The position numbers and the translations under genes are program-made. A stretch of DNA of 56,699 nt, filler included, from Sluysia triapertura (lineage: Eukaryota): assembly GCA_046118255.1 (NCBI GenBank). It is 4 parts of 4 records of this genome, joined end to end, with 100 filler letters (N's around TTAATTAATTAA, not from the genome) between each part and the next. Parts side by side here need not be neighbours in the genome. Positions count along the whole stretch, not along the records: positions 32,958 to 45,194 come from JBJNIA010126631.1; 3 more parts are not named here. One strand, written 5' to 3'. Shown here piece after piece: positions 3,598-54,921 of the stretch (the first letter of the stretch is position 1; every line of letters starts with the position of its first letter). The notes under the pieces are model-generated. The model had not been told where the DNA came from. It saw nothing but the letters and a program-made list of their open reading frames with translations, and did not search any database.

Positions 3598-3704
3598 CTA
3601 ACAATTATAAAATTATAAATTCAGGTTCGATCTAACAATATTTTAATACGAAATTACAATTATTTGAATAATTTCCAAAAATATCTAAACAATAAAAAAC
3701 TCAC

Positions 3705-3988: not shown

Positions 3989-4372
3989 CTTAATTAAAAC
4001 ACACAATCATTTATAATAGTAATACCAAAGGTTCGTAGAAAAATTCAAAGATCGCGTAACACTTAAAATATTTCTTTAAAATATTAGCTGTCTTCCGAAT
4101 TGGAAATGACTTATTCGAGTAAATATCTCCTGTGTGAAGATAGAGGTTGAGCATCATTCAGTTATTCTTCTTTAAGTGAAAGATGAAATCTTGAAAACTA
4201 AAGCTAACTTTTCCATATTTCTTATTTAAATTGTCTACTTCCTTTATAATCAGTATATATTTCACAAATTCGTTTTCTATTTTGCATACTAAACTAGCGT
4301 TCTTTGAAGATCACTACTTAAGTTTTGTTGTTTGACATCACTATTACTATTTTTATATTTAAGAAAACTTAC

Positions 4373-6173: not shown

Positions 6174-6532
6174 TGTAGCAGCCATACCCATTACTCAAAA
6201 TTTTGACCCTTCGTAATACACCAACATAAACAACTACACAACCACATAACACTTAAATCACTCAAAACATTAAAATTCAATAAACTCATGTTTAAAATCT
6301 ATCAAAAAAATGAAATGAAATTTCTATAAAAACATCATTCACTTCTCTTAATTCTTTTTTATAACTCACTCATTTATTACTCATTCTCACTTCTCTTTTT
6401 TCGCCATCATACCCACTTTTTAATCATGAACGTCTTGTTCATCACCATGATCGTTTAGAATATCATTATAACTATCATTTACATATTCTAAATACTTGCC
6501 TACCGCACAGCAGGACCGCTACTAAGCTGCAC
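6174..6532 (+). mobile_element. C/A-skewed LTR-like segment
   Basis: Starts TGTAGCAGCCATACCCAT, is strongly C/A-rich and G-poor, and ends near AAGCTGCACA. The start motif recurs at 11859, 41415, 54921(-) and 56422. Confidence 0.45.
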
Positions 6533-6562
6533 AAAATTGAAGATCATATTAATTTAATAGAT

Positions 6563-7420
6563 TTGGAAAATGAGAACAGAGTCATTGAAGAACATGATCA
6601 AAACATAACTGTCAGTGACAATTTTACATCAATATCAACAAACTCTGGTGTTGGTAACAGTAGTCAAAGTAATGTATGTCAACGAAGACCACTTGCAAAT
6701 AATAATGAAAATGGTGAATCACAGATAAAAGAACCGGACCGTGTGTCAAAAGTATGTCAGCATTCAATTACCGGATAACAAAAAGAAGTAAGCGCAAAAT
6801 GTTCAGAAATGCTAGATCCGAAATTAGTACCTAAATTAAGTGTTGATCAATTGTCGGATTATAAAGTGATATCACAATTGATTTATGAGACATAAATAAA
6901 AAGAAAAATTCTAATAATAATGGTAATAATGTTAAACAATAAAAAGTTCTTGCACAAATGTACAATTAAAAGAAAAAACTATAGATAATTTATTGGGCAA
7001 CGAGAACATTAAAACAAATGATATTTATCATATAATAACTGAAAAGATGATATTGAAAATGCAGAGAAAATAAATAAAGATATTCGCAAAGAACACAGCG
7101 AGTAGAAAAGCACTGTTAATAATAGGGATATTGAAATAGTAAAAAAAATAACATCGAATTGTTAAAAGATAATAAAATGGAAAATCAGTTAAAAAGTAGA
7201 AAACAATGTAAATGAAAAGTATTGTAAAATTTTACCGAACGATAAAGAACATATCGAAAATAATCAAAATGAATCTGAAATAAACAAAGTTGTTGCACAA
7301 ATTACAAATTTGGTCGATATTGTTGATGATATAGAATCAAAGACAAATGAAAACGAAAATATGTTTGTTAGTACTAAATCTAAATTAAATGGTTTAATAT
7401 TAAAATTTCAGATCTAATAA
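6563..7420 (+). pseudogene. Decayed N/E/K-rich gag-like ORF of a mobile element
   Basis: Fragmented coding-like frames (e.g. 6563-6778) directly follow the LTR-like segment, with many stops and frameshifts. No diagnostic motif. Confidence 0.3.
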
Positions 7421-8240
7421 TAAATTAATAGTAATAATCATAAATTACTATTAATAATAATAACTATAATAATAAAATGTTCATTTTTTATTTAACTGCA
7501 ACGCAAAAAGTTGCAAAATTCTGCCATATATTAGGACTACTAAAATTAGTAGTCCTCCACAAGTCTACCACAATTTTTAGATAGAATACAATATATTTTG
7601 GCAACCATTATTTCAGAAGCACATGAACTTATAATCATCAAAAGTTAATGTTAATTACTCAACTAGACGAGTATTTACTAATCTCGATGTCGATGAATTT
7701 GATGATATTAAATCAAGTTGTAAAGTTATTTTAATATTTATACAAAATGATTATTTTACTAATTCTACCATTATTAAATCTATATATTTTAGAAATTCCG
7801 AAATATTAACCACTTATGACACAGTGGAATTGAAAGATGTTAGGAATCATGCTAAAAACCATGAATTATTCAGTCAATGAAGTCGGTACCAGCAACAAAG
7901 GCTCACGTGACAGTTACATTAGTTTCATGCAATGGCTTACATCTGATATTCCTAATCCTATGGTGAAATGTGACGATGTGATGAAAGATTATACATGGTC
8001 TGTCTAATCCTGAACGATCGATGCACATCGTGCGAAGTAAAGCTTTCTTAATTCTCTTTCTTCTTCTGTCTTTAATGATAATGAATCATTACATTTCCAT
8101 CTCTCAATGTGTCAGTGTTTAATAGATTAGTTTCGAAGTCTCATTTCAATGATATTTTGTTTTTCAAAGAATATAATATAATTATTTATGTTAAAACTAA
8201 TTTTAGTAATAAAATAATTCTATAATAACTTTCAACCTAA

Positions 8241-8241
<1 letters not shown>

Positions 8242-8303
<62 letters not shown>
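8242..8303. repeat. (AAT)n microsatellite
   Basis: Perfect trinucleotide run. Confidence 0.95.
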
Positions 8304-8304
<1 letters not shown>

Positions 8305-10091
8305 TTTTATTGAGATTAGAAATTGAAATATTGAATTGAAATATTAATGGATTGTTAATTGAAATATTATATTTTTGTAAAAGTATGTATCTCGTTTTTA
8401 ATGGATTTTTTAAAGAATCCATTTTAATGGATTGAATTAATGGAATTTTAAAATTAGAATATTTTAAACTACAATATTAATGAACTTTTAATTACAATAT
8501 TTTATTATGAAAACGCTACTAAAGAAGCAGCAGTAACATAATTTGATTTGAATAAATACATTAGTGAAGTACCAACAATTTTAACGTATTCAGTAATTGT
8601 CTTTCTGAGGTTCAAAGAAGGAAATTTAGACATAATCACTATGAGATTATTATCGAGCTAAAAGCCTGAATTCTTATACGTAAGTTTTATGCTTCATTTA
8701 CTTGAGGTACAATTTTATCACTTAAAATATTTTTATTTAGGCTGGCTTAGACTAGTCACCAACTTCGTTTTAAAGTCAATTTATATTTCACTATGGGTAA
8801 AATTATAGTGTTATAATATTTTATAATTTATTATTATCATGCTTTTTAAGTTTATTGAATATTATATGTAAACGTAATTTAGCTTATTGACTTTGATTTT
8901 TTGTGTTGTTCAAAAGCGTCCTCCGTTAAAAGTTTAGTGACCTGATTTTGATATTTCGTTGGAAGGAATGAACAAATATAAATAAAATAAAAACTCGATA
9001 TTTAATAATTCCCAGAAGTACGTCCTTTTACATAAAAGATAAACCGTGTACTATAGGAGAACCCATTTAAAATAATTTTGCGTATAGGAATTTAATTTTT
9101 AATAAAAATCCTATCTTAATACCTCTAGGTTTTTAATATATTTTAGTATAATTAAAGGATTCAGCCCAGACATTAATAAAAGATTTACATTCATCAAATA
9201 TTCATTACCAAACAATTACAAGATCAACACATGGCAATTCTTACAACTTCGCACGTTTCATCTTCTATATCATGTCAGCAACACTGTGGCATTTAAACAT
9301 ATCCATTTTAAAACATTTTCAGTATTTAACATTCAATTTTCATTTTCATTCTCTGTACCAGCGGATGAAATAAAATAACAGATTCAGTAGTTATCTCATA
9401 TAAAAACTGTAATATCAAGATAAACTCCTCGAATAAAAAATACATTTGTTAGAATATTAGCTGTAATCAGTCATGATAATGTTTACGCCAACTATCGGAT
9501 GTACAGGAGTAAAGAGGCGAGAGTGATGATTTGTGAGTGCATGATCTAGGACAAGATGTTTTTCAAACTAAATAACGAACTGAAAACAAATTGTTCCATG
9601 CAGTTCAACATAGTAAATGAAACCTTTTACCTTACTATCAATGAGTATTTTATATTGAATATGTCATTTTAGTTTTCTCTTGTACTATATAAATCGCATT
9701 ATTCTAGTTGATTTTTCAAGAGTTTGGATCACTCCCATTTACTCTTTAAAATTAAACATGACACATCATAAAGTATATAGAGTTATTAAAGTTTTGCAGA
9801 TTAATCGAAATTAAAACAATCAGGACTTTCGAGTAAAAATATACTCTCGATCATTCATTTTAATTGGCATTGGATAGAGGTAAAGCAATAGTAAAGTTTA
9901 AAGTTAGTACTGATACTAATGAAAGCAAAAGACCTCATAAACACCATAAACTGAACACAAATTGCAGTTATTATAGATTGCAAAGAGAAAGAAAAGATCG
10001 AGTAAAGATTTAAAAGAATAAAATGTATCTGTTTTTATATATATTATTATTATATTTATTTATTTTATTACAATTATTATTTTTCCAACCA

Positions 10092-10093
<2 letters not shown>

Positions 10094-10140
<47 letters not shown>
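10094..10140. repeat. (TAT)n microsatellite
   Basis: Perfect trinucleotide run. Confidence 0.9.
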
Positions 10141-10637
10141 TAATTATTATAACTATTATCATTTTAACTGTTTTATTATTATCGTTTTATTACTATCTGA
10201 GCCTAGCCGTCATCAGTGACAGCATTTTAAATAAACTTAAAATGCTGGTTATGTAGCTGTCTACTGATGACATTACACATTAATGAATTGGTACATTGAT
10301 TGTTTGTTACACACACGCTATCGTTTTATTATTTGATTCAATTGATTTGATTGGACGTCCAATCAATCCAATCATTGTATATTTTTATTTCACATTTATC
10401 TGGACATCCAATCACAAATCACATGCAATACACTTATCATTTCACAACGTGACTCTTAAAAATAACTTCACAATTATAAAATTTATTTACCAAACCAATA
10501 AATTAATAAAAATAGGGTAAAAATCGTTTTGAAAGTGTAAATTAACAAATCGGCATCACCAGAATCACAAATGTATACGAAATCTAAATATAATCATTGA
10601 CCTTTACATGGTAGAAATTAATTAATTAAATACTAAC

Positions 10638-11109
10638 TTTATTGCATAATTTGCAATTGATATCATAAAGATGAATACCGTGCAAATGAGTATTATCTGC
10701 TGTCAGTAAATTAACAACAGATGGCAAGTTATTCTTTGTGGTTGCAGTACTTGATTGACCAATTCCTAGATACTTGTGTGACTTTGAGACATTATTCGAA
10801 TGATTCATTACGTTCGAAGATTCATCATCGATTAAAAATGCTGCGCGATACTTTCCATCTGAATTTGAGACGCACATACCAGTTGCTAAATGTTGCGGCG
10901 ATATACGGCAGCGTAGAAAGTCGTGACTTAATTCAGAATCGGTCTTAAGTAAGTGACACAGATCTTTGGCTCGTTGTAAATAATTTGAAGACAAAACACC
11001 ATTATTGATATCATCTTGATAACTCTTGAATAAAGACTCTTCCAGTTGAGCACAAAGTTCCCATATTTGATGGAAATTGAAATATTTATTATTGGATAAA
11101 TTGGAACCT
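10638..11109 (-). CDS. DIDO1/PHF3-like gene exon, TFIIS central domain plus HxxHLxDxNCKxC motif
   Basis: WELCAQLEESLF...YLQRAKDLCHLLK...ISPQHL is TFIIS-M-like. It is followed by DNTHLHGIHLYDINCKLC, matching the DIDO1/PHF3 'HRAHLFDLNCKIC' motif. TTTCAG| acceptor; the AAA|GTTAGT donor (phase 0) joins the 4906 exon in frame. Confidence 0.85.
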
Positions 11110-11858
11110 CTGAAATGTCAATTTTGATTTTTAAATTCATTTTATCTGATGAATTTCATTTATTATAAAAGAATCTACGAACGAGAAAATTTAAATTCAT
11201 ATTCTTTGTAATGGTAAAAATTTTGAAGGACAAAGAAAAAATTAAAACAATACAGGCAAAAACGCAATAGCGATGTATGTCATTTATTATATGTTCAAAT
11301 AAAAGCTTTTAGCAGAATAATAATTATATATTAATCATTCACTACAATAATTCTGAAACAGAAAGAACTTTGTCTTTTTCTTAAATATTTCATGTAATTT
11401 GACACATTCTCTGGTAGCTAGAGTTAGATCGTCAAATTATTCTTCATGCTCCAGATACATATCAATAAGCATACTTAAATTTTATTGCATGTACCTTTGT
11501 GTTACAAGTGAAGATGTTGAAAGAAAAAAATTAATTAATTAGAATGTTAAGACTAAAATTGATTAAAAGCAAAATTCTTAGTTTTAATATTAATACTAAT
11601 TATAAAGATAACTAATACAGTAATAAAACAGCCAAGCGATACAATAGTACATATATAACTACAACACTTAGCAAATGTGCAAAAACTGTCATGCGAAATT
11701 TTTATTTAAAGTCAAAACTGTATATATAACAGTGATGTAATGGTTTGTTGATTATGCATGTAAAAAATTGATTTTTTGGCATAAAAGAAATTAAATTAAA
11801 ATACGGGTAATAAATTAATGAAAAAGGTATAAATTGTATAAATACGGTTAGTTGTCCG

Positions 11859-15567: not shown

Positions 15568-15667
15568 NNNNNNNNNNNNNNNNNNNNNNNNNNNNNNNNN
15601 NNNNNNNNNNNTTAATTAATTAANNNNNNNNNNNNNNNNNNNNNNNNNNNNNNNNNNNNNNNNNNNN
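15568..15667. other. 100-nt scaffold gap with TTAATTAATTAA linker
   Basis: N run with a six-frame stop spacer at 15612-15623. Confidence 0.95.
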
Positions 15668-15739: not shown

Positions 15740-17979
15740 TAGGAATGGAATTTAAATTTCTTGAAGGAACATCGCTTAATTTTTGAGATCTCAAGTGGTA
15801 CTGCATTATTTGGCCATTAGTCACAACAGAGTATGTCTACATAACTTGAGAAGTAATTGGACATGGAATGATTTTATAAATACTTTAAACTTTTCTAAAT
15901 GATAGGATATCAGAATTTGTCAATTTCAATTAAAATTCGGTCATTTAGCTGCATGACCAAGACATTATCTATATGTCGGATAAAGAGGAAAAAGAACCCT
16001 TTCATTCATAAAAGGGTTTATCAGCATCAAATGGTCCATGTTGCTGCCAGTAATAATTGAAAGTGTTTTCTTTTTAAAAATGAACTTACAAAATAAAATA
16101 TATTAGGGTTCGTCTATAGTTAACGATGTATACCTTCGTAGTAGACGCTTCTATAGGATTTAGAATAAGTTTTAATTTTCATGATGGACTAAATTCAAAG
16201 TTAGTGCAGTTTCTACTCTAGCTATAGATTTATATCGATTGAGTATTTCTTATTACTTTCTGCAGCATGTGGTCGAATCATATGGATTCTCTAGAATTTA
16301 ATGTGAAGGGATTTGTCAAAATAATATTGTAAAATTTAAAAGTTATGTATGCATTGTGTTTAAACGAATTCTTACTCTCTAGTTTAGTTATACATTAATA
16401 ATGTATACTTGGAAGATATCAAGTTTTATTTGGACGATCAAGATTCTAAAGGTTAAATTATTGTTAATGTAAACTTCTTTAATAATATATGTACTCTATA
16501 TTAATATATTAGCTTTATTTTTTCTCAAAGTACGATTTATTATTATTATAAACTTCTAACAAACTTATTCTACAATTGATATCTATATTCTATATGTTAA
16601 ACTTATCTTCTCTGGAAATATAAATTCGAATACTCGTTCCAGTTGTTTGAGATGGAAGTGCCTTCTGTTACTCTGGAGTTAATTTACTCAAATACTTTAA
16701 TTTTATCTAAAAGACTTTATCTTATTTATAAAAAAATTTATCCGATTTGCTTTTAAAAAAATTTTTTGGACTTTAAATCCTTTGATACAATTTGTATGAA
16801 CTTTTAATATGTTTTCCTTCTATCTTTCACTCAACTTTTTAAAATTTTTTTACTGACTGCTCTATTTTCAGTCCCTCAAAGAAAATAAATAAGACTATAC
16901 GATAGAATTTACTTTAAAATATAATAGTTTACAATTACTTTTATTGATAAACAAGCAGACAATTTAGTTTGTTAATTTTTCTATTCAGATTAAAATCACT
17001 GACTCTTTTTTTTCTTTTTAAAAAAAACCGGGATAAGATCAGATCCCCTTTATGATCAATCGTTGGTAACAAAGTAATTCTTCTGTGTTTTGATGAAACA
17101 CTTGATAACAAATTAATTCTTCGATTAACAGCGACGTAACATTAAAATTAAAAAAATCTGATTCTTTTCTTTATTTGTTATTATGTGTAGTTTGTCAAAT
17201 GACAGTAGTATTTAAACTGTCTTTCAAAATTTTGTTACTACACTTAATGATAATTAATTTATAAGTTTTATTTAAAGTAATTAATTCTTATCTGAATACG
17301 TGCAATATTATAGTTAATATACAATCAATAATAATATATACACAAATAATATATATACAATAGCAATTGATTTATCTGAATACATATAATTAATTTAATT
17401 TATTCTAGTTATACTTTAAATTATATTACGTACAAAATTTTTAATTTATTGATTATTAAAGAATTCTTAATAATTTTATTGATTATTAAAGAATTATTGT
17501 TATTATAATTATGTTATTGATTTGTTAAGAATTTAAATTACATTGCTTAATTATTTTATTGACATATAAACATTGCATACAGCCATTATAACATTATATT
17601 ACATACAACCATGCATACAACATTATAACATTATGTTATAATATAAAAACTTATTTCATTTAGTAATTTCTTAAATCTGAACCTCGTTAATCTACAAGTT
17701 GTTACAATTAACTTGTGTATGACTACTCCCTCAATCTGTTAACGGTTTTTTTTGTTAAGTTTGCTTATTTAGTTAAGTGTTTATTGAAAATTCATGTGTA
17801 TTAAATCAACTCCATATGTATTTCCTTTTTATCATTATTATATTAAACAGTCAAAACAACTAATATATATTAAAGATAATATTAAATATTATAGAGAGTG
17901 AAAGTTAGCTGAATAATCTGAGGCCTGTCTCGTAAATCCAAGGCATGATTAAATGCCACAAAAGCACCTTATCATGAAC

Positions 17980-18355
17980 GGAAAGAGGTGGCACATGGGT
18001 GAAAGATGTGCCACCTACCGCGATTGTCATGCTGGTAAAATTTAGGTAAAAAGATTGTGACCCAACAAGTGTTAATGAAGGTCAGGTTTTACTGTGCTTC
18101 TATTTTAACGAAGCATTTTTTATTCAATGAAGACTTGCGAAGAGATGAGAAACCATACGTCTGAATAAAAAGCAGTGTCACTTCAACTATGAGAGTAACT
18201 TTAACAAGCTCTCTAGCCATCGTGATGTACATCGCATCCAAATCATCGGGACATTTGCTAAGCCATGTAGGGAAATTCGAGGGTATTTATATTCAACTGG
18301 TTTTTAGAAAAAATGCAGGACATAAAAGTTTTTAAGTTGATCTTGGCTTGTAGTT
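17980..18355 (-). pseudogene. Decayed homolog of the orphan gypsy accessory ORF at 39190-40386
   Basis: Minus-strand fragments QAKI..KNFY, PAFF, PRISLHGLANVP..LDAMYITMARELVKV, FSSL..LNKKCFVKIEA, QSFLPKFYQHD and GGTSFTHVPP align in order with QARI..KNFY, PAFF, PLISLDGLSQIP..IDSLYLAVARGVVKV, FSSL..IHKKCNIVIEA, QSFLPNLYKED and NGTSFTHVPP. Confidence 0.85.
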
Positions 18356-22429: not shown

Positions 22430-25400
22430 CCCAAATTGGTAGAGGAAAATCATCACATATGGTTCGTTGCCTATACTTTGATGAAAAAATGAGCTCGGTT
22501 CTTAATGAATAAGTAAAAGTTACGAAATAAGTAATTTCAGAAAATGATATTTAATTTTAAAGTTAATTTATAATAAATTTTAATTGTTGTGAAATTATTA
22601 GTACCTTTATTCGATGATAACTTATAAGTGACAATACTCAGGTTTATAATCGTGTGCTCTACTGTTTGGCCAAAATTCATGTTTATCATATGGTTCAATC
22701 TTACACAATATTCATGTTTGAACAAATACAAGTTTATTATTTATGAAGTTTGAGTTTGGGAATGTAAACCCGTAATGAATACCATCTTATAAGTCACATG
22801 AAACATTGGAAAGTGTTCATCGAAAAAAAACTCGAATATTTTTATAACATTCTAACACGTATCTCGGTATTTGAGTTATGAAAATCAAAATATTCAGACT
22901 TAAACATTTGTTCATTGCTGTAAGTGATGGCTACTAATGCTATAAGTATCATAGGCATTAAATGTATCTTTTTGGCATTCTGAGATTTCTACCGAAATTG
23001 ATTAAATAAAACGCTGTGAAAAATAGTATTATAAATAACTTATAAGTGGCCTTTATACTATCGAAAATCAATGGATTAGCTTTATGAATGTTTCTTACCA
23101 ATTTAGTTGTAAATGTTTTGTTGGAAATTGCTGCGTGGATATTTTATTGTTATATTGTTTTATTTCTACAAAATTTTTAATACTACGTGTGTTTTGTGCA
23201 TTATCCATCGTTATTCATATTAGAATTCGTCTATATGCATTATGTATGTTGTTAATATTAAGGATTTAGATAAATTCAATCAATTTCGAAGGCGTGTGGT
23301 AAAATTAATTTTTTAGCAATAAATTTCATTCTCCAGTATCGATTATAAGTATTACTGATCATATTTTTGTTATTTTCCGGTCTTAATAGCTGTGTTCCTG
23401 TTTTAAAATTCTTTCTAAGTATAGTTAAATACACAAATAAAAATAATAATAATGATTAATTTCATCCAAAAAGGAAGTTTTTCTTAAGCTTATTTTCATT
23501 ATTAGTACCTAGTTGAAAACTATGATGCTCGGAAACTATTCCTAATGTATCTGACTCTACTTCGTATGATGCTATTGACCATGTGGAAGAATCCGACGAT
23601 ATATCTGGAAAATAATGAAACGTAGTTGATACTAATGATTTTGGAAGATTTGTTGTAGATTGTAGTAAGTGTGGAATCATTGGTGATACGCGCAAGTTTG
23701 GAATTTGGATTTGCAGTACCATACGCGACCTTGTGAAAATTTTACAAATCCGCATTTATTTGTATTACTATAATTATATCCTTTTATATTATTTTACTTA
23801 TATCTTACATTTGTGTGTCTACCAAATGATCCTTCCAGTGGAAGTAAAGTTGAGACTAAATCTGGATTTGTAATTGCTACTGCTAACATTGTGCGTAGTA
23901 TCGCTTTATTTAATTTCAGACTCTTTGTAACTATTCCTTTCTTAATCTGTAATATTACTGGTCCGAAAGATAAATGCCTTGGTAATTTGTTTCTGCAATC
24001 TCTTTACCGCATCGAATTATTAACCTACTGATATAAATATTAACCTATCTTTATTGGTCATTAAAATTACATAGTTTCTATATCATTTACTCTTTCTTAG
24101 TAATGACTCTTTGTTTTCTTTGTTTATTTGTCTTCTATTTATTTATATTAAGAATTCGTAATTATCCTGATGCACGAATCCAACTTCGCTTAAACTTTAT
24201 TTGTTTTAGAAATACTAATGGATACTGAAATACTAACTCTGGTATCACAACTAGTTTGATCGGTTCAACAAAATTATCATGGCATTATAGTACTTTTTTC
24301 TACGTCAAAACTTTTGATTTCAAACTTAAGTCTCGAGCTACGATAATTGCGCTACATTACTTCTATGTTTGTTTGAGTTTTGAAATTACTACTGTTACTA
24401 CCATTATAATTATTGTAATTGTTCGGTCTTCCTATACTTTTGTTTCTTCCTACAAAATTATCGTTGTGTTGATTATTTGATAATCTAGGCGGTAATAGTG
24501 CTTGTATTTCCGAGAACCAATATTATTTTGATAACTTCTTTCGTTATATACTTTTCTTCGGCTGTAATTTTTTTGTATTTCTTCTGTAATTGTTTCCACA
24601 AAAATTAATGATTCTTTTGCAATTATAATCTGAAGCATTTCAATACTTGGGAGATTCACTTTTTAAATTATATCTTGGGTTTTTATCTCTTTTAAAACTA
24701 GTATTACTCACACAACTTATGTTATCTTTTTCTTCGGCTTGAGATTTCTCGATGTCCCTTAATTTCTTAATTACTTCCTAAAGTGTGGAGGGCGATAATT
24801 TTTTAATTTTATAAATATTAAACCTTAAAAAACAATTTTTACTTTACAAAAACAATTAAACAACTTGAATTTAAATTTAAACAAGAAGGGCTTAAGGCCC
24901 GAAATGATTACTAATAAACAGTAAATTAAAACGCTTAAACAATTCACAAGGTTTATTAATTTACAAACATTATTAAAAGGATATATAGAATATAAATTTT
25001 TAAAACAAGATAAAACAAAAAGTAAATGAATTAGGATGAATTTTATGTGATGAGTTCCCTACACTTCCTTAATTACTTTCGTAACCATCTTTTAAATTTA
25101 TATATTAAAGTTGTATTTTTTATCTTCAGGGATTTTTGTCCTTGCCACTAAACAAATTCGTAAACCGTTCCATTCGGCTTCTGCTTCTTAATATTTAACA
25201 TCTTAATTTATTTTCCAAGGTCATCTAAAGCAATTTCTTCAGCAAAAAAATGTTCCAATTTTGATTTTTTGTATTATCAGCTTCTTTATATGTTGGAATC
25301 CGGTTAAATAATTTTGGATTAAGTTTTTCTATTTCGGTGCAGCTGTTAGTTTCGCTTTTCAAATAAGAAATCATAGAGCTCTTCTTCGGCTCCGTTAAAC

Positions 25401-32857: not shown

Positions 32858-32957
32858 NNNNNNNNNNNNNNNNNNNNNNNNNNNNNNNNNNNNNNNNNNN
32901 NTTAATTAATTAANNNNNNNNNNNNNNNNNNNNNNNNNNNNNNNNNNNNNNNNNNNN
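32858..32957. other. 100-nt scaffold gap with TTAATTAATTAA linker
   Basis: N run with spacer at 32902-32913. Confidence 0.95.
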
Positions 32958-33858
32958 TTTCTGAGGTGGCAATCTTTAAAATGTCAATCTCTTCTCACAT
33001 CTTCTCTTGCCCAATCTAAACTCTCTAACAAATTACTTCTTAGCTCTGAACTTTCCGATAATGCCTTCTTCTTCTTACTTAAAGCTCGTACCAATACTTT
33101 GCCTCTTAACTTTTCTGCACGCAATCTTAAAACTAACTCCCTTACAAACTGCCGAAGATGCCACGTACTAAATCATTGCGCCTTCAACTCTTCTCTAATT
33201 ACTGATCGACATAATCATGCTCTAAACCTTATCTGCTCTTTCTTTAGGGACCGTGGGGTTGATATTGAATGTTACTCTGAGTACAGGCTTTTCTCTAATC
33301 GCTCAGATGTCCCCGATGAGGTAAAAAGACAGCGACCGGATCTCCTTTTTCAATTCAACTCTTGTTTCTATCTAATTGATGTAAAAACGCCTTTTGATAA
33401 AATCGAAACTTTCTCTTCTATTCATAAAGAAAATTCTCTTAAATATCTTCCCTTCTCACAATATCTCTCTAAAATCACTCGCTCTAAAGTTCTGATCTAT
33501 ACTTTAATCTTTCCTTCTCTAGGCTCTATCTATCCAGAAAACTTCAATACTCTCAGAACCTTCAACTTCAACAAATCAGATATCAACAAAATTTTGGTGG
33601 AAATCTCATTCAACATGGTGAAAATGTCTCACAGAATCTTCATCAACTATATTCTGTCCAGATATCCGAAAATCAAACATCTAACAGCTGCTGCAACTGT
33701 TAAATAAAGAAAATAAAGAAAATTAATGACAATTTATCAATCTCAAAGACAATTTGTTCATCTTTTTCGTGATTCATCTTTTCCATTTTCTTCTCATATG
33801 TAAATCATCATAATATACAGCCCTCGGGCATCGATTTAGCGTTTTGTATATAATAAAA
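32958..33858 (+). mobile_element. 3' end of an RLE-endonuclease non-LTR retrotransposon (NeSL/Utopia/R4-like)
   Basis: KARTNTLP, CRRC-HVLNHC (zinc knuckle with spacer deleted), RHN, RPDL...LIDVK..F...KY (PD-(D/E)xK endonuclease). Stop at 33707, short 3' UTR ending in AATAAAAA. Confidence 0.9.
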
Positions 33859-33919
33859 ATTTGGTAGTTCGAATTATAAATTATACGAATGATAATAAAT
33901 GGTTATTTACAGGAACTAA

Positions 33920-35990
33920 ATGGGAAGAATTGTTAATTATAAAATACCAACACATATTAATGTAATAAGCGATACGAAAAATAATAAAATAAAATTACGA
34001 CGGGATATACAAGAAGAGGATTATGGAGAAATTCATATCAATAACAAAAATTTAACCAAAAGGCAGAAGGAACAACTACATGAAGTTATACATCGATTTC
34101 CAAGAGCAATTTCAAAAAATAAATACGATATTGGAGATTCAGTAATTATAAAACATGTGATACCATTAACAGAGGATAAGGTAATTCGAAGAAAACCGTA
34201 TAGAATTCCTATTTGCAATCAAAAAGAAATGCAAGATCAAATTGACACTATGAAGAAAGCTGGAGTAATAAGACCGAGTTTCTCTCCTTTTTCATCACCA
34301 GTATTATTAGTGAAAAAGAAAGACGGTACAATGCGATTCTGTATAGACTTTAGAGAATTAAATAAGATAACAAGAAAAGATGTATTTCCCCTACCACGAA
34401 TAGACGAGATGTTAGACAAATTAGGGAATGCCACGACTTTAGATTTACAAAGCGGATATTGGCAGATAGAAATAGCGGAAAAAGACAAGCAAAAAACGGC
34501 GTTCACATGCGGAAATGAATTATACGAGTGCGAAAAGATGCCATTTGGTTTAACAGGTGCACCAGCAACGTTCCAACGTTGTATGAATTTTGTACTATCA
34601 GAATGTAAAAATGTCATGGTTATATAGATGACATTATAATATTTTCAAAGGACTTTAAAATTCATCTGGAAGATATAGATAATATATTAAAAAGATTGGA
34701 AGTTGCCAGACTTAAAATAAAGCCTACAAAATGTGTATGGGCAGAAGAAAAAGTTGAGTTCTTAGGACACATAGTATCTAAATATGGTATTAAACCAAAT
34801 CCAAGAAATATTGAAGAGGTAATTAAGTTTCCTCAACCGGATAACGTTAAAAAGGTTCAGAGTTTTCTAGGTTTGGCTAATTATTATAGAAGATTTGTTA
34901 AAAATTTTGCGAAAATTGCACAACTTCTTAGAAAACTTACAAAAAAGGATGTAGAATTTAAATGGATCGAAGAACAGATGAAGGCATTTAACGAATTAAA
35001 AGAACATTTAACTACAGCACCAATATTAATATTTCCGGATGTTAATAAACCTTTTATACTAACTACGGATGCTAGTAATTACGCTATCAGTGCAATTTTA
35101 GGCCAAAAGGATAAAAATAATCGTGAAACAGTTATAGCATACGCCAGGAGAAGACTTAATAAAGCAGAAATGAATTATTCAACAGTTGAAAGAGAATACA
35201 TAGCAATTGTATATGCATGTAAATTGTTCAGACATTACTTGTTAGGACAAAAAGTTTATTTGTATACTGATCATAAACCTTTAACATATTTGTATAATCA
35301 CCGAGATGAAGTTAGCAGACTCAACCGATGGTTTAATAAATTATCAGAATTTAACTTGGAGATTGTCTACAAATCTGGTAGTTTAAATAACGGGGCCGAT
35401 TGTATGTCTAGATTGACGAATGTAGATGATGAAGGAAATATCAATTTAATACAAATTATGTCAGTATCGGGAAATTTACAGAACTATGAAGATATTATTA
35501 AACATCAAAGAGAAGATAAAGAAATTTCGGCTATTCTAGATGGGTTAGCTAAAAGAACTTTAAATGAGTTACATTCAAAAAGATTAGCTATTATTGATGG
35601 AATATTGAGATTTAAAAATAATAAAGACGAATGGAAAACTATTATCCCAGAATCATTAATTATAATATTTTAATACAATTAGGTCACTTATCAACGAGGA
35701 AAACATTATTGAGAATTAAAAATAAATATTACAGGGAAAATATGGAATCAGATATAAGAAAATGGTGATGAAAAGTAGGTGATGAAGTACTCAAAGATTA
35801 TACGATAACTAAACCTGGACATTCGCCAAAATTACAAAAACCTTTTAAAGGATCTTATTTGATAACAAAAGTTACCGATACAAATTTGTTTGTTAAGGAT
35901 CCTAATAAGATTAATTCTGAAACGTTTGTGGTACATGTCAACAGGTGTAAATTAGCACCGAAAGAGGAATATAATTTAAGAAATAGAAAG
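33920..35990 (+). pseudogene. Gypsy pol: RT, RNase H and integrase remnants
   Basis: RT: KPYRIP, SPFSSPVLLVKKKDG..RFCIDFRELN, LDLQSGYWQI, MPFGL..APATFQR, and YIDD at 34621-34632 after a 1-nt frameshift. RNase H: TDAS, E, TDHKPL, ADCMSR. The integrase HH region (~35680) is joined directly to the GPY/F module (KLQKPFKGSY), with the DDE core deleted. Confidence 0.95.
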
Positions 35991-36119
35991 GTACAAAAAT
36001 CAAAATTAAAAATTCAACCAAGACATAATGATCGAGATAAACCGCCGTCAATTCATACACTAAGGAGTAATCAAGTGGTATTCATGATGAATTCTCATAG
36101 AAATGACTTAACTCATATA

Positions 36120-36470
36120 ATGCAAAATGTACGATTTAACGGACGATGGGTTAGAGCAATCGTAGATACCGGCGCTACTATTACTGTGGTTCATAAAAAC
36201 TTTCTAATTACTTGGGAATCAATATTCTTAAACAGACCAAGTCTAATAACATGTAATGTTAATCAAACACCTATAAATATCAATGGAACTTTATCATGTT
36301 ATATAGAAATATTAGGACAATATGTACAAACTGTAGCAAATGTTTGGGATAATAGCCCATATGAACTAATACTGGGAATGGATGTTATTAATAAATTGGA
36401 AGATATGGTTATTCATAGCATGTATGGATTTATAAAAATACCACCAGGTTCAAACATGATCATACCATAA
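36120..36470 (+). CDS. Second retropepsin-like aspartyl protease, downstream of integrase
   Basis: VRAIVDTGATITVV active site and YELILGMDVI C-terminal motif, in frame with the integrase C-terminus (ORF 35859-36470). Confidence 0.85.
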   Translation: MQNVRFNGRWVRAIVDTGATITVVHKNFLITWESIFLNRPSLITCNVNQTPININGTLSCYIEILGQYVQTVANVWDNSPYELILGMDVINKLEDMVIHSMYGFIKIPPGSNMIIP

Positions 36471-38925
36471 CTAGTAGTTCCACAAGACGGTGATTAGTTA
36501 ACTTTATATCAAATGCCAATGTCAAATCCACCACTACAAGTTCCAGACTTACCCGACATTGTCGAATCTACACTCCACTTATCAGATGTGTCATGAGGTT
36601 CACCATCATCAATTACATCAGAAGAAAATTCGGATTCAGGAATCAGTTCAGATAATAACTAATATAAGAAAAAGAAATTGTCTTAGTAAAAATCGTTTTG
36701 GGAAAATAACTTGTTGGCTTTCTATCCTAATTATGATTTTTCTATCACTAATAACTAATGTCATGGCAACAGAAACAGCCGAAGAATATAAAAATATGAA
36801 TATATCTACAAATCATGGCAGGGAACAAAAAATAATGATTAGTGACATTTACAACCAATATTGGAAATTCGAATTCATTTCTAAGAAAATGATTCTTTAA
36901 CACAAATTTGAAATTTATTGTATCTCTTTGAAACCATTATTAGTGGGAAAGCCACATCATTTGGACGGTATCCCACATTGTTTACATTACGGTTATAGAC
37001 AAATGCTAATAACTTTCTCTTTTGACACTCCAAGAAATACACGAGACATCCGAAAATTTATTAAGCAAATAGATCAGTTGAGTAATGAAGACACAACGAA
37101 AATACAGACAACCCTATCTGATTATAGTGCAATTGGGAAATCAATAGTTAATTTAAACAATTCAACTGCAATCGGTAAAATGGAACACTCTTATAAATTC
37201 TTTATAATATTACTAATTTTTTACATTACTATACTTATTTTGGACGATACTCTATGTGTATCAGATAGGTAAGAAAATACAGGTCCCGCGAACAACAAAA
37301 ATCTAATACCTTTAATTTTGATTACGATAATTACAGTAGTTCAATGTCACGAACAATCTTTTAAGACGGAGTATTTTGAATTTTATAATGGAAACAATGA
37401 AGCAAAAGTTAAAATATTAAATGAAAATGTTCATGCCAAATTTGCATGTTTGAAACCTGCCAGACTTAACTTTCGCTCATAGGTTATATACGAAAATTAT
37501 ATTAATAGTGAATTGAGGTATCCCGTCACGGTTTGCTCAGATATTTTACGTGTTGAAGATAGACATTATAGTGAAATACCGTCACTCATCAAAATACTTG
37601 CACTTTGCATTTAAATGTACAAGAAAACATCTAACAATATTGGAGGTATTACGGAATGATCCAGCGTTAATGATGCTAATTGTGGTGGCAATGCTATTCA
37701 TAATTGTTCTAGCTATAGTGGTATTAACTATTATTATGTTTGTTTCGAATAGATGCCGATATCCATGTCTATCGCATAACAATAATAATGTCGACGACGA
37801 CGCGTATACAGTTCCACATAGAAACAATTACGCTCCTCCTCCAGGTATGCCAATACTCCCACCTCCAATTTACGAATACGCTACAAACAATCAAATACCG
37901 CTTATATACGGAGATTGGCAAATGACTCAAGTAAAATCTACAATCTTGATATGTATCTACCTATCTTGTATATCAAGTACAAATTATTTATCAGAAAACT
38001 CCACGCCTAAAATAATTTTAGTCTCTACTCAAAAAGACGTATACGCTAGAATATTAATTGACGAAATTAAGTTATTTTCGGCCCGAATAAAATGTTGTAT
38101 AATGGATTGGTGTGAAATTGAGACAAGAGCAAGTAAACAGGATTCCTACTGGTTCATATCGTGTATCGATCTTGCTGAATATCAACTAATTAGTGTAACA
38201 ATAACTATGGAACTAGAATATGACTCCCAGAGTGACTCCAGGACTATTTTAATGCGATATTACAAGATAAGAACTAAACCATTTGTTTTTCGACAATCTT
38301 CAATAGTAGTTGAGTTTCCAATGATCATCTATCGCGATCTCCGAAATGTTGTACGCATATATAATCCGCTATACAATAATACATTATTGATCGCCTACAA
38401 ATTGAGTAATGGTTTACGTTATGGAATAATATTGCCTAATGAAACCATTCGCTTATATCATATTCCGAATTATATACTCATGTTTGTCAAATTCTGGATA
38501 ATAAGAAAAACAGAAATACTTAATTCTAAAGGATTCTAGCCAACAATTAGATATCACGACGAGCAGGTACCAATTATAGATAAAAACGAAAATGATTCTG
38601 ATACAAAATCAGAAAAATGCTTCTAATCAATAACAATGGTACGAATATAGCTTATGGCAAGCATAAGAACTTTAGTCCAGCCACTATCAGTAGGAATAAG
38701 AACGTAAGTCTGAATGCTACTAGTATAGATAAGAAAGTAAATAAGGAAAACACTAATTTTTCAATTATGAGAGAATCTAACAATAATTTCATCATAACTG
38801 TAAACTGTATTTTAATAATAACTTCTTTGTTAACCTTAATAATTAATTTTGTTATCCCAAAATTCTATTTGTTTATTAGGCATAGGGCTCATTTCTTTAT
38901 AATGGTTTTAATACATATTGCATAA
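36471..38925 (+). pseudogene. Accessory membrane polyprotein (several signal-peptide/TM segments, PPxY tail), mildly disrupted
   Basis: Frames continue across single stops and frameshifts. Hydrophobic segments lie at ~36710, ~37195, ~37300, ~37665, ~37935 and ~38790, with LPPPIY after the TM. The homologous relic has a sense codon where this copy has the 36898 stop. Confidence 0.7.
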
Positions 38926-39189
38926 TTGACCATATATACTCCCATTCATGTTGGAACATATGTGATATTAAAATTGATTTTGTAATATAGTAAGGATCGT
39001 GCATATGACTGAATGTGATGGTTTACCATCCATCTCGGCTCATGCACGAACTTAAAATTTTATATATGTGTAGGATTTTTCTTTTTAATTTTCTAATACT
39101 AAGTTTTTCTACAATTAATTTTGTTAATGAAATATAAAATTAAATGATTTTAATAAGCTTACTTATTTATAATTTTTCTGTACAATTTT

Positions 39190-40386
39190 ATGTTTCTCTC
39201 CAGTTACAGAATTAAGATGCAAGCCAGGATCCTGAACCAACCAAAAAATTTTTATCTCCACGTGGACAAATTCTGCCACCAGTGTATTATCCCCGCTTTC
39301 TTTTCTTGCTCTGTCGATACCCCTAACAACCTTAAGTCAGAACTAAATCTTAATCTGGAAACACCTTTGATTTCACTAGATGGCTTATCCCAAATTCCTC
39401 AGATGATAGATTCCTTGTATTTGGCTGTGGCACGAGGAGTAGTTAAGGTTGCACTAGTTGATAATGGGGTCCAGTTTCATACTCGTGCCCACATGTTCTC
39501 CTCACTATACATCTCAAAGATACACAAGAAGTGTAACATTGTTATCGAGGCTACAGAATACCCCACTTCGATTACCCTTCTTTTCCCATTGCTACCCTCT
39601 TCCTTCCAATCGTTTCTCCCTAATTTGTATAAGGAAGACATCGCTAATCTGACGCGATGGAGAAATGGAACGTCCTTTACGCATGTTCCACCTATGTTCC
39701 ACCGCTTGGTCTTCGTCGCATATTCGTACGCTTTCGATTTTTTAAATCAACCTCATATCGCCCATTTGTCCTGTGTTCCTTACTCCCGCCAATTTCCCAC
39801 AGATGTAAATATTAAATCTCGCCTGCGTATTAAGAATTTTGTGAAGGACGTTCACGAAATGAAGGATTCGGATATTTCCGAGGCGAAGGATGTTGACGAT
39901 GTCGGCCCTTTTCTGTTGGAACATATTCACGATAAAATTCTAGTTTCATTAAATCCTTGCCTCATCATCCGTGACCTGAATCTTCCTTTCGGGTGGCTTA
40001 AAGGAATTATAAACTTATCCAACAATAATCTTTTATCTTATACCACGGACAATGAAATCTTGAGGGGACGGCTTACTTTTAAACTGCTTTATCCCGTGCC
40101 TCCCCGGATGACATGCTCACGAATGTCATTCGAACTGGTGAGCCTTTTGGATCTGATTCGTGAGAAAGACCCGACCTTTATTCTCCCTCCACCATCGCTT
40201 TTTTCTAATTTCCCCCTTTTCTCCTCTACTAATACTCTCGTGGCACATTCTAAATCAACATTACCATCACTAACTACGACACCTCCCCAATTAACAGCCA
40301 CTCCATCAACATCAACTGAATTATTGCAGACAGCAACTACTCTACCAAACCATCTATCATCACATACTCAATTACATAATAAATAA
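39190..40386 (+). CDS. Intact orphan accessory protein of the gypsy element (likely start at ATG 39217)
   Basis: 398-codon uninterrupted ORF, GC-richer than its flanks, with a T/P/S-rich tail. The second ATG is preceded by a pyrimidine tract + CAG (39193-39203). A diverged homolog lies at 17980-18355. Confidence 0.8.
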   Translation: MFLSSYRIKMQARILNQPKNFYLHVDKFCHQCIIPAFFSCSVDTPNNLKSELNLNLETPLISLDGLSQIPQMIDSLYLAVARGVVKVALVDNGVQFHTRAHMFSSLYISKIHKKCNIVIEATEYPTSITLLFPLLPSSFQSFLPNLYKEDIANLTRWRNGTSFTHVPPMFHRLVFVAYSYAFDFLNQPHIAHLSCVPYSRQFPTDVNIKSRLRIKNFVKDVHEMKDSDISEAKDVDDVGPFLLEHIHDKILVSLNPCLIIRDLNLPFGWLKGIINLSNNNLLSYTTDNEILRGRLTFKLLYPVPPRMTCSRMSFELVSLLDLIREKDPTFILPPPSLFSNFPLFSSTNTLVAHSKSTLPSLTTTPPQLTATPSTSTELLQTATTLPNHLSSHTQLHNK

Positions 40387-40620
40387 CCAAAAATTCCTCA
40401 ATCACCACCGGAGTCTCCTCGACCAACACACATACCACGTGGATCGAATACAAAAATTCGTCAATGGAAGAAGAAATTATACCAATCTATGAGTAGCCCA
40501 CCGAAATTGACGATGTGGAGCGACGACTCCGAAGTGGACCTAGATGATTTTTAACTCATTATGATCTTCTTATTTGTTGTATTATCACAATACTTCCACG
40601 ATTCGAGACGAATCTTCCCG

Positions 40621-40632
40621 AAGGGGGAAGTA
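40621..40632 (+). promoter_or_regulatory. Polypurine tract
   Basis: AAGGGGGAAG just before TGTGAAA at 40634. Confidence 0.8.
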
Positions 40633-40633
40633 T

Positions 40634-41175
40634 TGTGAAATATAAAAATTTTGTTGTAAAAATTGTAAAAAATCAATTTTGTGTAAATATTGTCTTGTTT
40701 TTGTATAAATATTATCTTAAAAAAATTAAAAAAATTAATTAAAAGTATTTATGAAAATATTTAATATTATTAATTAAATCATAATTAGAATTTTAATTAT
40801 TGAGCATAATTAATCTAACGTATTTTAAAAATAGAATAAAAGATTACAAATTTATTATAAATATTTATTTTGAATAAAATTAGAAAATTTATCATACATA
40901 TTTATAAAACATTGAATAAACTTAGAAAAATTATAAATTTATAAATATTTAATATTTAACTCTATAATTAGAATTAGCTTGCATAAGAATATATGAAGAA
41001 AAAGACAAGTAAAGCCTTTTCACAATTTCTCAGTCAATAATTTAGTTGGACAAAAAGGTCGTTTAACTCTTGGAAATTTGGTATTACTGGTAACGCATAA
41101 TATATTTACCTAAGGAAAATTAAGGAGAAAACTAATATATTCAATTTATGATCTGAAGACGTTGAGAACAATCGA

Positions 41176-41212
<37 letters not shown>

Positions 41213-41414: not shown

Positions 41415-43865
41415 TATAGTGGTCAACACTCATAATTTAAAATTATTCAAAATTTCTTGATCAATATTTACAAATTAAATTCCACTAAAATTCAAATTTT
41501 AAAATAATCATACTTTTCATTTTCGAACTAAACCAACATAAACATCATAAAACAACATTCGATATTTACAACACCCACCAACTCACATATATTAACAATT
41601 CAACTAATATTTCAACCATCTATAGCATAACAAACTTCGACATTTAATCTCGAATAATTCACAACATTTACCCACAAGACGTTTCAACAAACAAACCACA
41701 ATCACAATACAAAATACACAAATCATAAACATAACAACATTATTCATCAACGCTAAAAACATAGACTATTGCCATCTAAAACCTAAATCAACAACACCGA
41801 CCTACATCCACTTCATATACACATATTCATCATTCACAGTTACTCGCAATAACATTATAAAATATGAAGACTTATTTTGTAATCATCATTAAAATTAAAA
41901 TAACTTCAACTTTCCAATAAACATTTTAAACCATTAAATCTAATGCAAAAATCTTGTTTTTAAATTGTAAACCTTCAATAAGTTTCAATAAATTATTCTA
42001 ACATTCTCCACTTCACTTACAATCTAAACCATTACATCTGTTAAAAACAAATTTAAGATAACTTTAAAGAATTCATTATTCGACCTTGAAGCAACAACGA
42101 TAACCGACATTTAATATATCTTATTACCGTTGCTCCTTTACAGTGTATTATTTGTTTGTTGTTTCTCTATTAATTTTATCATTTTTATATGTAAGAAGGT
42201 TTAAAAATACAAAGAATAAGATCGTGTTTAAGAGTGTTAAAGGTTTATGCGTTTCTTTTAAAATTTTATAATAATAATAACAATAATTTTATCATTATTA
42301 TTATTATAATACTGTTATTATTATCATCATTATTGCTGTTATTATTTTATTTTCGTCAATACCTAAAAATAAAATAAATAAAATTTAATTATTGTAGTTC
42401 AGACTGGTTACTGCAATCACCAACACTGACAACCTATTTACATTTTTCATTAGGCTGTCAGCGTTGATGATGGTCGGTGATCAGACATAATTCACAGGAA
42501 TCGATTTTGTGTCACAAATTAGTTGATTTTTCTTATCGCCCAATCAGAGTGAATATAACTCTCAAAATACTTACAATACTCTGATTGGGCAGGCTAAAAA
42601 AAGAACTAAAACTAAAAAATAATCAATAAAAAATTTTTGTACGCACAGTTAAAAATTTTCTGACAACAATTAGAAAATTCCAGACAGTAAAAAATTCTCC
42701 AGACAAAATGGATCATCATTTTAGTAAATCATGTATTAATATTAATGCAAGAGCAATGCAGTTTTCATCGCATATTTTAACTGATCTTTTATGTCATTCT
42801 ACTCATTATATGATGAAAAATTGTATGGAACAAAAGGATAAAGCATTCTCAACAATCTTATCAACAGAGTTATCAACAATCTTATTATTGTGTTAAGAAT
42901 CAACCATTTTAAAGTGTACAATTTGGATTTGTCAAATGAGTTATCTGAAGAATTAAACAATATATTGTTATTTTTATTAAGACTACTAACGATGACAAGA
43001 CAGATGATTCATATCGATTTATAATTGAACCAATTCTCAAGATTAATGTAAACGATTGGAATCTACTCGAACTAAAACATAAATTGTTAAAGTCACTAAT
43101 ACCAAGCAGGTGGGCCCACTTTCCAAAATCTTTATGGTGTAATAATTACAATTATGATAAATACGTTATGACTCAGCTTCGTGTTCGACATGAAAATAAT
43201 TTTATATCATTCAGAATGCATATTAACAATCAATTTTCAATTTTAGTATATCATCATGAAGGAAATGAGTCCAGTTTGATGCGATATATTTTATACGCAA
43301 ATGTGACGTCAAAAAAGAGTTTAATTGATTCGACAATCAAATTATTGCGACATCGGTGTGAATTGACGGATTCAAGATTAAAGTTCATTTTGATTAAAAT
43401 ATCAACACTAGGAGATAGATATGTCAAGAGATGTAATTCAATTTATGATAAAGTCGGAAGTATGATGACAAAACCTTATAGATTAATCCAAACTCCTACT
43501 CTTTTGTTTTTTTCAGATCGTGTTACATATACATTCAATTTCATATGAAGTAGATGAAATGATTTTTAGAAATGTCACGAGATACATCTATAAGTTGGAA
43601 TATGCTGCAGATATCCTAAAACAAGAAAAAGCGATCTATGTAATAAAAACGTTTTATCTGAATATAAAGTATGAATCATCAATTAATTGTGATTTATCTT
43701 GAAACTTTTCAACAGTATCTTTTAGGGTCTCGAGTACCTTTCAATATCGTAGTGTGGAAAATTCAGCGATTTGCTTTATCATTGCATGGTGATATAAACA
43801 TAATTCCAATTAAATTCTGTGAAGTTTCATTTAATAACAAATTTGTAAGTCTTAATTCGATTTAA
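41415..43865 (+). mobile_element. Decayed element: C/A-rich leader, T-rich tract, hairpin/CCAAT module, broken orphan ORF
   Basis: TATAGTGGTCAACACTCAT start (family motif), inverted repeats at 42416-42471 and 42538-42590, and overlapping ORF fragments 42708-43865 consistent with one frameshifted gene. Confidence 0.4.
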
Positions 43866-45194: not shown

Positions 45195-45294
45195 NNNNNN
45201 NNNNNNNNNNNNNNNNNNNNNNNNNNNNNNNNNNNNNNTTAATTAATTAANNNNNNNNNNNNNNNNNNNNNNNNNNNNNNNNNNNNNNNNNNNN
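45195..45294. other. 100-nt scaffold gap with TTAATTAATTAA linker
   Basis: N run with spacer at 45239-45250. Confidence 0.95.
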
Positions 45295-54169: not shown

Positions 54170-54921
54170 AAGGTGTAAAATACAAAATATACTAGGGTTT
54201 GTTTAATAATTTATGGTTGTTAATGAATTTAATGAATCATACTGTGATATGACTTGAATGTTCCGTGAAATATTAAATGTTTAAGTTTGTGGAAGATTTG
54301 TAAAATAAAATAATGCCAAGTTAATATTAAATGGTTTACGAATATAATGATTTAATGAATAACGTTGTGAATTAATTGATTGTAAAGTTGTGAGATAATT
54401 AATGGTTAAAGTGCATAGAACTTTTGGTGATCTTTGAGCGCTTCATAGTGATTAAAAATTTGCCGAGTGTCTCTAAATTGCAGAACAACTTTGTTTCTTT
54501 AGTGAGTCATCTTGTATTTAGTATTTCAAATTTTAACTTATTTATGTCATTTTTTGAATGTGGTGAATGCATTTTATACTGTAATTTGTCGATTTTCTTT
54601 TGTGAATGATGTTATTTGATTATGTATAATGTGTGGATATGAAGTGAATTTAGTGAATTATGTAGTAAGATCACTTTAATGTTGTGGAAAATATAAATTG
54701 TTTGAGTAAGTAGATGATCTGTAGAATGAATTTATCTAGTGTAACGTTGAACAATTTAAAAATCGATATAATTTGTTGAATAACATTAGGAACTAATTGA
54801 TTGCAAAACTTGTGAGATATAATATGGATAAAGAACTTTTAAATGATTTAGAAATGTTATGATGTAAAGGTTTATTGTGTTTTTTCTGTAGTAAGATTTG
54901 ATTTCATAGGATGAGCCAACA
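54170..54921 (-). mobile_element. C/A-skewed LTR-like segment (minus orientation)
   Basis: G/T-rich on the plus strand. The minus strand starts TGTTGGCTCATCCTATG, similar to the family start motif. Confidence 0.4.

Follow-up and report, generated by a model that had tools for sequence, protein, structure and literature searches.

The membrane-protein module at positions 36688-38982 of the window (the whole stretch of Sluysia triapertura DNA that was analysed, 56,699 nucleotides with its filler) is interpreted, with a probability of roughly 0.6, as the 3' part of an errantivirus-like Ty3/Gypsy element of the gB-type GAG-ENV-POL kind, made as one precursor. This reading draws on the order of the domains, a decayed open reading frame (ORF), an alternating pattern of membrane segments, the clade to which the element belongs, in-frame membrane cassettes in its relatives, and a gB-like piece in a second copy. 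The best reading of the module is three units in tandem, each made up of signal, ectodomain and anchor, with type-I, alternating orientation. A first-pass annotation had proposed a single precursor cut into several small proteins, secreted or type-I membrane-bound. The single precursor stands as the best reading, in keeping with the in-frame cassettes of intact relatives; its products would be three membrane-anchored units released by three cuts, and no unit looks secreted. In place of the suggested env-like precursor of an ordinary retrotransposon, the units would represent accessory glycoproteins in a gB-type family.

The element and its decayed coding frame

The window is AT-rich throughout (GC 0.20-0.38 per kb), and the module is part of a decayed, multi-copy Ty3/Gypsy element with the characteristic order of reverse transcriptase, RNase H and integrase and with Gypsy-type RT and RNase H. 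This copy is referred to as copy 1, and a second, older one as copy 2. The 5' part of the element, comprising gag, any env, the first protease and the 5' LTR, lies outside the window. Elsewhere, exons at 3135-11117 on the minus strand, with a SPOC domain (4292-4906, minus strand, E 1.3e-5) and a weak TFIIS_M match (10629-11117, minus strand, E 0.0012), probably form an intron-bearing host gene, which we take to be PHF3/DIDO-like and which gives the window a eukaryotic look; the type of element points to an invertebrate host. An ORF at 32958-33707, adjoining the shortened 5' end of the element and an N-filled gap, has CxxC..H..C and PD-(D/E)xK-like motifs and no significant Pfam match; presumably it resembles the C-terminal endonuclease of a non-LTR retrotransposon. 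The gaps at 15568-15667, 32858-32957 and 45195-45294 each consist of two N runs flanking a 12-base linker with stops in all frames. A stop-free frame of 199 codons at 42949-43548 shows neither a Pfam match nor likeness to the element, and an inverted pair of diverged sequences at 54206-54833, each about 210 bases long and 71% identical to the other, is perhaps a MITE or a DNA transposon remnant.

The Pol region of copy 1 lies on the plus strand, as do all features of this copy described below. Reverse transcriptase and RNase H occupy 33920..35673 in two frames with a break near 34620 (Pfam RVT_1, E 5.3e-18 and 1.8e-9; RT_RNaseH, E 6.6e-37). Of the integrase zinc finger, only the beginning is present (35676..35767, where 28 aa are 50-61% identical to relatives). 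The integrase core of about 245 residues is deleted from copy 1, residues 1139 and 1386 of the related protein P0013 abutting there, and at 35767 the sequence continues differently in 27 contigs. The integrase C-terminal domain follows at 35772..36083, with 38-49% identity to the relatives P0009, P0010, P0011 and P0013 (E 8e-18 to 1e-11), and shares an unbroken ORF (35772-36470) with a second aspartic protease at 36084..36467, whose DTG motif is intact (PF13975, E 6e-8). The best matches of this post-integrase protease are proteases of the same RT clade; the combination of an integrase tail with a second protease was found in none of 334 candidates among long proteins. Behind the protease, a Pro/Ser/acidic linker with a basic stretch at its end and with stops and a frame switch (36468..36711) leads to the module.

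Downstream of the module, an accessory ORF of 445 codons with one stop (39217..40554) has a homologue in copy 2 (E 3.5e-7). It is soluble in character, with no hydrophobic helix and a Ser/Thr/Pro-rich end, and beyond the window no homologue of it was found in Pfam, the Atlas database or PDB sequences. It precedes a polypurine tract followed by TG at 40620-40635, the likely start of the 3' LTR (feature 40620..40640). A partner LTR, sought as a second copy of 40601-41200, was not found within the window. An apparent LTR likeness between the two copies of the element was rejected as AT-rich noise.

The module lies 3' of the integrase and the second protease and is a genuine, if decayed, coding region. 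Its best frame contains 4 stops in 309 codons at 36688-37614 (27 and 31 in the other two frames, Poisson P 9e-9), 2 in 344 codons at 37595-38626 (31 and 31, P 2e-11) and 1 in 127 codons at 38602-38982 (21 and 14, P 5e-7). Within it, five in-frame stops (36898, 37270, 37480, 38537 and 38923) and two frame switches (at about 37595-37612 and 38602-38626) were recorded. The earlier statement that most segments read on in one frame across single stops is right as to a stop-poor coding frame; it overlooked the two switches, and only the stop at 37270 lies between units, the others falling inside ectodomains or past the last anchor.

The hydrophobic stretches, taken alone, are no commoner than chance in AT-rich DNA: per kb and frame the module has 0.75, compared with 0.83-1.19 in four flanks (six frames). 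This density, no higher than background, fits a very improbable alternative, in which the module is DNA of the host or of another source that the element captured and carries passively, or else a chimeric product of two neighbouring elements, and its hydrophobicity merely reflects AT-richness. Against it stand the open frame and a bias in glycosylation sequons. What does depart from chance is that all five plus-strand hydrophobic segments recovered by the scan lie in the stop-poor frame; a sixth, H5, falls below the scan threshold and its limits were set by eye. The predicted luminal parts hold 12 sequons in 514 residues, compared with 8 in 1349 predicted cytosolic residues, an approximately fourfold excess (binomial p=0.0024) that is partly compositional, since composition alone predicts 6.3 in the luminal parts.

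Three proposed signal-ectodomain-anchor units

The first unit would begin with the signal segment H1 (36712..36768), preceded by three basic residues. Its ectodomain (36769..37194) comprises 142 aa with 3 sequons, 2 Cys and the stop at 36898, and has a homologue in copy 2. The putative anchor H2 (37198..37242), assigned from topology and kept in copy 2, is 15 aa long, which is short for an anchor, and has acidic rather than basic residues behind it. A loop of 19 aa separates it from H3 (37300..37347), the proposed internal signal of unit 2, which is likewise kept in copy 2. Ectodomain 2 (37348..37660), of about 104 aa, has 3 Cys and lacks sequons. It is interrupted by one stop and one frame switch, and is followed by the 27-aa anchor H4 with a predicted cytosolic tail of 64 aa (37661..37933). 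This tail carries a juxtamembrane stretch rich in basic residues and Cys, and one PPxY motif.

The third unit would start at H5 (37934..37978), a candidate internal signal that begins at a Met and lies inside a 340-codon ORF. Its ectodomain (37979..38784), of about 270 aa, contains one stop, one frame switch and 9 sequons, 5 of which sit in a membrane-proximal stalk. The 24-aa anchor H6, a basic stretch and another short hydrophobic stretch complete the module (38788..38982). Basic residues are found ahead of H1, behind H4 and behind H6. The two transmembrane helices reported previously were confirmed as H4 (37661-37741, 27 aa) and H6 (38788-38859, 24 aa).

Four signal-peptidase-like sites had been proposed, and all four motifs are in place: LITNVMA|TE at 36768/36769, DDTLC|VS at 37257/37258, ITVVQC|HE at 37347/37348 and LSCISS|TN at 37978/37979. 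Three of them, at the ends of H1, H3 and H5, fit such sites, under a rule of small residues at -3/-1 that is lenient and has little power by itself. DDTLC|VS is probably not a signal-peptidase site, because it follows a stop-transfer anchor and would therefore be cytosolic in the topology proposed here, and because the residues behind H2 are not kept in copy 2. A model with four cuts was rejected, since the tail with the PPxY motif would then be luminal and either ectodomain 1 or ectodomain 2 cytosolic.

It is quite unlikely that the units are instead separate small genes, each with its own start and with a real stop at 37270, after the model of the adenovirus E3-type cassette of immunomodulatory membrane proteins. 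That stop does fall precisely at the boundary of units 1 and 2, Met residues occur shortly ahead of H2 and of H5, and copy 2 has Met residues within its H3. However, copy 1 has no Met between the stop at 37270 and H3, no stop separates units 2 and 3, and copy 2 has a frame break, with no in-frame stop traced to the matching place. Moreover, the anchor and tail of unit 2, H5 and most of ectodomain 3 form the single unbroken 340-codon ORF. This ORF, the missing Met before H3, the contigs and copy 2 together favour one precursor. At the junction of units 1 and 2 and at that with Pol, continuity appears probable from the sequence, at a strength below proof.

Other copies and relatives of the element

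Contigs from one public sequencing run, in which 42% of the words of the stretch are present and which may itself be the source of the window, provide a view of further copies. In total, 13,716 contigs were placed on 32960-41150, their depths not being taken as copy numbers. Sampled module sites are covered by 1-53 contigs, and the family therefore has many diverged copies; coverage by 21-53 contigs at sampled sites argues against passively captured DNA. No copy of this family with an intact module was found in the sequences analysed. The stop at 36468 in the linker is read otherwise by 21 contigs and that at 36898 in ectodomain 1 by 49, so both are private to copy 1; at the last frame switch, one contig has a different length. 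This comparison comprised 40 of 1,569 differences, with the stops at 37270, 37480, 38537 and 38923 and the first frame switch falling outside these. A single contig links 36875 directly to 38987. It suggests that there is a copy lacking most of the module, and such an omission would suit the passive-capture alternative.

Copy 2 (22474..24041, minus strand) retains a gB-like env piece, the linker, H1-ectodomain 1-H2-H3, the stalk and the H6 region, with Pol and units 2-3 largely deleted. It is 68% identical to copy 1 over 787 aligned bases, with a score of 202 compared with 56 as the maximum of 30 shuffles. The homologue of ectodomain 1 lies at 23413-23131, H2 at 23041-22994 and the preserved stretch behind H6 at 22536-22474 (all minus strand). 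H3 still has small residues at -3/-1, and 44 aa there are 43% identical to copy 1. A hydrophobic stretch occupies the place of H1 in an ambiguous frame. About 4 kb of unrelated sequence (22400-18300) separates this module from a remnant of the accessory ORF (17903..18276, minus strand), in which the homologous part is 18262-17903 (E 3.5e-7). The retention of H2, H3 and ectodomain 1 in so diverged a copy, with the same downstream ORF, likewise speaks against passive capture.

The gB-like piece of copy 2 (23955-23818, minus strand) is 47% identical over 47 aa to the Env of the relative P0121 (E 1.9e-8), and alone this 47-aa piece has no Pfam match. It precedes the post-Pol linker in a copy from which Pol is deleted, and its place just upstream of that linker probably ties the module to a gB-bearing family. 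A Gag in copy 2, suspected by eye, was unconfirmed by search. Copy 2 breaks at other places than copy 1 does: some 97 codons of its linker read through in the region that stops interrupt in copy 1, and two further stops of copy 1 are absent from it. Near H1 and between H2 and H3, copy 2 is itself frame-broken and too decayed to fix the frame.

The RT-RNase H of the element, searched against long proteins (the best 120 of 3,327 being retained), groups with P0009-P0013, which are unnamed ENA proteins, at an SH-aLRT of 98 in a quick tree of 120 rows; its exact place is somewhat doubtful because its branch is long. A hydrophobic segment was found in 4 of the best 120 long matches, all four in the clade of the window element. 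These four, P0009, P0010, P0011 and P0013, carry an in-frame signal-like segment, ectodomain, stalk and anchor after the integrase, with a Pro-rich tail in three of them, and the fifth clade member, P0012, ends inside its integrase. This cassette makes up the C-terminal 300-430 residues of P0009, P0010, P0011, P0013 and P0121, and the same cassette logic in relatives is a further point against passive capture. P0011 has an additional signal-ectodomain-anchor cassette ahead of its protease, and P0013 and P0121 each have two protease-like domains ahead of RT.

P0121, the longer member of the cluster of P0010, is a single ORF of 3,735 residues with the order Gag-gB-type Env-PR-PR-RT-RNase H-integrase-cassette. 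Gag, which consists of a capsid-like domain and zinc knuckles, and protease thus precede RT, and the gB-type env (PF24664, E 1.2e-91), with a PPxY in its tail, lies upstream of pol. The ectodomain of the relatives, folded from a four-row alignment (pLDDT 85.6), matches tandem fibronectin-III (FN3) domains, with a Foldseek E of about 1e-6 and VIA Z up to 9.6 (for one domain, Z 9.2 and rmsd 2.6 over 85 residues); its matches in a viral structure library are phage FN3 proteins. It is predicted to be tandem FN3.

These copies and relatives also bear on a rather unlikely alternative, in which the same signal-peptidase-cut precursor is expressed as a separate ORF3, through splicing or a subgenomic RNA, and Pol terminates within the acidic linker. 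The env of Drosophila errantiviruses is such a separate ORF, translated from spliced RNA. In the window, a frame switch and several stops lie between the protease and H1, the linker holding four stops and one switch in about 75 codons, a denser set of breaks than elsewhere. Additionally, an acceptor-like AG at 36687, with pyrimidines before it, stands directly ahead of the basic n-region of H1. On the other hand, copy 2 has an open linker frame as far as H1, the first linker stop of copy 1 (36468) is private to that copy, and a signal follows in frame in all 4 of the 4 relatives that extend beyond the integrase. The reading of the module as the tail of one Pol-containing precursor is preferred.

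Searches with the module itself gave no homologue. The ORF of units 2-3 had none in 1001 candidates among proteins of 551-2000 residues, units 1-2 had no match among 1.84 billion representatives, unit 3 had no usable match in the Atlas database, the module had none in PDB sequences, and two read-through stretches of it matched no Pfam family at E<=1. Such absence of homologues from the searches run is compatible with passive capture. No likeness to the F or gB families was seen within the module, whose ectodomains of 142, about 104 and about 270 aa include no large single one. Scans of viral and metagenome sequences returned 88 Gypsy loci, and none of the 88 had the module, the cassette of the relatives or a gB env.

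Similarity between the window ectodomains and the FN3 cassette of the relatives was also sought. It was absent in hmmsearch, and hhalign gave probabilities of at most 0.13%. Global alignment remained at background level (Z -0.4 to 0.5), in a comparison of limited power, the most divergent true member scoring 17.0 and the 99th percentile of background 17.4. The likeness to the cassette of the relatives is therefore architectural only, as the window ectodomains have no sequence similarity to it. A resemblance of unit 3 to the FN3 repeats, noticed by eye in a C-x-x-L spacing, was unsupported on testing. The single-sequence model of unit 3 is unusable (pLDDT 35); it is beta-rich, with a best Z of 4.9 and no clear match.

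Proposed working and comparison with known systems

The module would most likely form the tail of the Pol polyprotein, in the order ...RT-RNaseH-IN-PR2-linker-module. Such a polyprotein would enter the ER at Env, come back out into the cytosol, where the Pol enzymes lie, and enter the ER again at H1. H1, H3 and H5 would then act as internal signals and H2, H4 and H6 as stop-transfer anchors, and host signal peptidase would cut behind H1, H3 and H5 to yield three small type-I glycoproteins. On the cytosolic side, the post-integrase protease may release integrase from the membrane-bound tail. The three products could serve as accessory envelope proteins alongside the gB-type fusogen, most likely as attachment or receptor-binding partners, or else as host modulators. 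PPxY motifs bind WW domains of Nedd4-type ligases, and the tail of unit 2 might recruit such ligases for sorting or budding.

A bolder reading is offered tentatively, as possible and short of even odds. It holds that the element represents a new lineage of animal Ty3/Gypsy endogenous viruses with a multi-component envelope, in which one polytopic polyprotein weaves through the ER membrane, a gB-type fusogen before Pol is combined with one to three interchangeable type-I cassettes after or before Pol, of FN3 fold in the relatives and of unrelated folds here, and duplicated proteases free the cytosolic enzymes. If so, the cassettes would be partners of gB that bind receptors or modulate immunity, and the retroelement would divide these tasks in a herpesvirus-like manner. 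Envelope-bearing Gypsy elements are usually seen as three-gene systems with one fusogen. If this clade indeed has modular accessory glycoproteins, a second protease and a PPxY tail, it would possess a route to target-cell recognition or evasion of host defence, and the Pol enzymes would be embedded between membrane cassettes within one natural polyprotein. In effect, this reading predicts a component missed by env-centred surveys, and the unbroken proteins of the relatives allow the idea of accessory glycoproteins to be tested.

In its working, the module resembles the structural polyproteins of flaviviruses, alphaviruses and HCV, in which hairpins of anchor, short loop and signal are cut by signal peptidase and a viral protease acts on the cytosolic side; there is no sequence relation. 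Closer to hand, the relatives P0009, P0010, P0011, P0013 and P0121 share the RT clade and the post-integrase place of the cassette. They have one cassette there, with one or two FN3-fold domains, whereas the window has three dissimilar ones.

Polyprotein-borne glycoproteins in LTR elements are already known from Burro, Atlas and the GAG-ENV-POL elements, as described in the consulted parts of the papers cited here. The strategy, at first called unexpected in an LTR retrotransposon, is accordingly less so, given nematode BEL/Pao elements (PMC9094657) and planarian Burro (PMC6431247). Burro/GYPSM1, a giant planarian Gypsy element, encodes one very large polyprotein, within which env sits in frame between gag and pol, and also has accessory ORFs; its extra domains are apoptosis- or ubiquitin-related and cytosolic, and the consulted part of the source mentions no serial post-integrase signal-anchor units (PMC6431247). 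The nematode BEL/Pao element Atlas/Cer13 makes a single Gag-Pol-Env polyprotein with two post-integrase membrane glycoproteins cut by host proteases. It belongs to another superfamily, and its Gn/Gc are, according to the sections consulted, a phlebovirus-like fusion machinery with a Gc of 498 aa (PMC9094657), whereas the window units have 104-270 aa and match no fusogen family. Additionally, the bdelloid elements Vesta4 and Vesta6c carry small transmembrane ORF3s downstream of pol, without known homologues; as far as the consulted part of the report extends, these are single, separate and 210-230 aa long, in contrast to three serial units in the window (PMC5408684).

The nearest known system is formed by the gB-type GAG-ENV-POL errantiviruses, which occur in nematodes, bryozoans and flatworms (Chary and Hayashi, PMC13524379, with Sacco et al. 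2022 cited there). Judged by the portions consulted, the window element is like them in its Ty3/Gypsy Pol, in having a relative, P0121, with a gB-type Env between Gag and Pol, and in the gB-like piece upstream of the post-Pol linker of copy 2. The literature consulted contains no account of Gypsy elements with serial accessory type-I glycoproteins, with an FN3 cassette or with a protease after the integrase; Sacco et al. 2022 or the supplements of PMC13524379 may already describe elements of this sort. Those errantiviruses are described, in the parts consulted, as having GAG, ENV and POL only (PMC13524379), whereas the window element has extra post-integrase type-I glycoproteins and adds a second protease and a further ORF. 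The unusual part would thus be that its units are probably extra glycoproteins rather than the fusogen, placed behind a second protease, in a family with a gB-type fusogen upstream of Pol.
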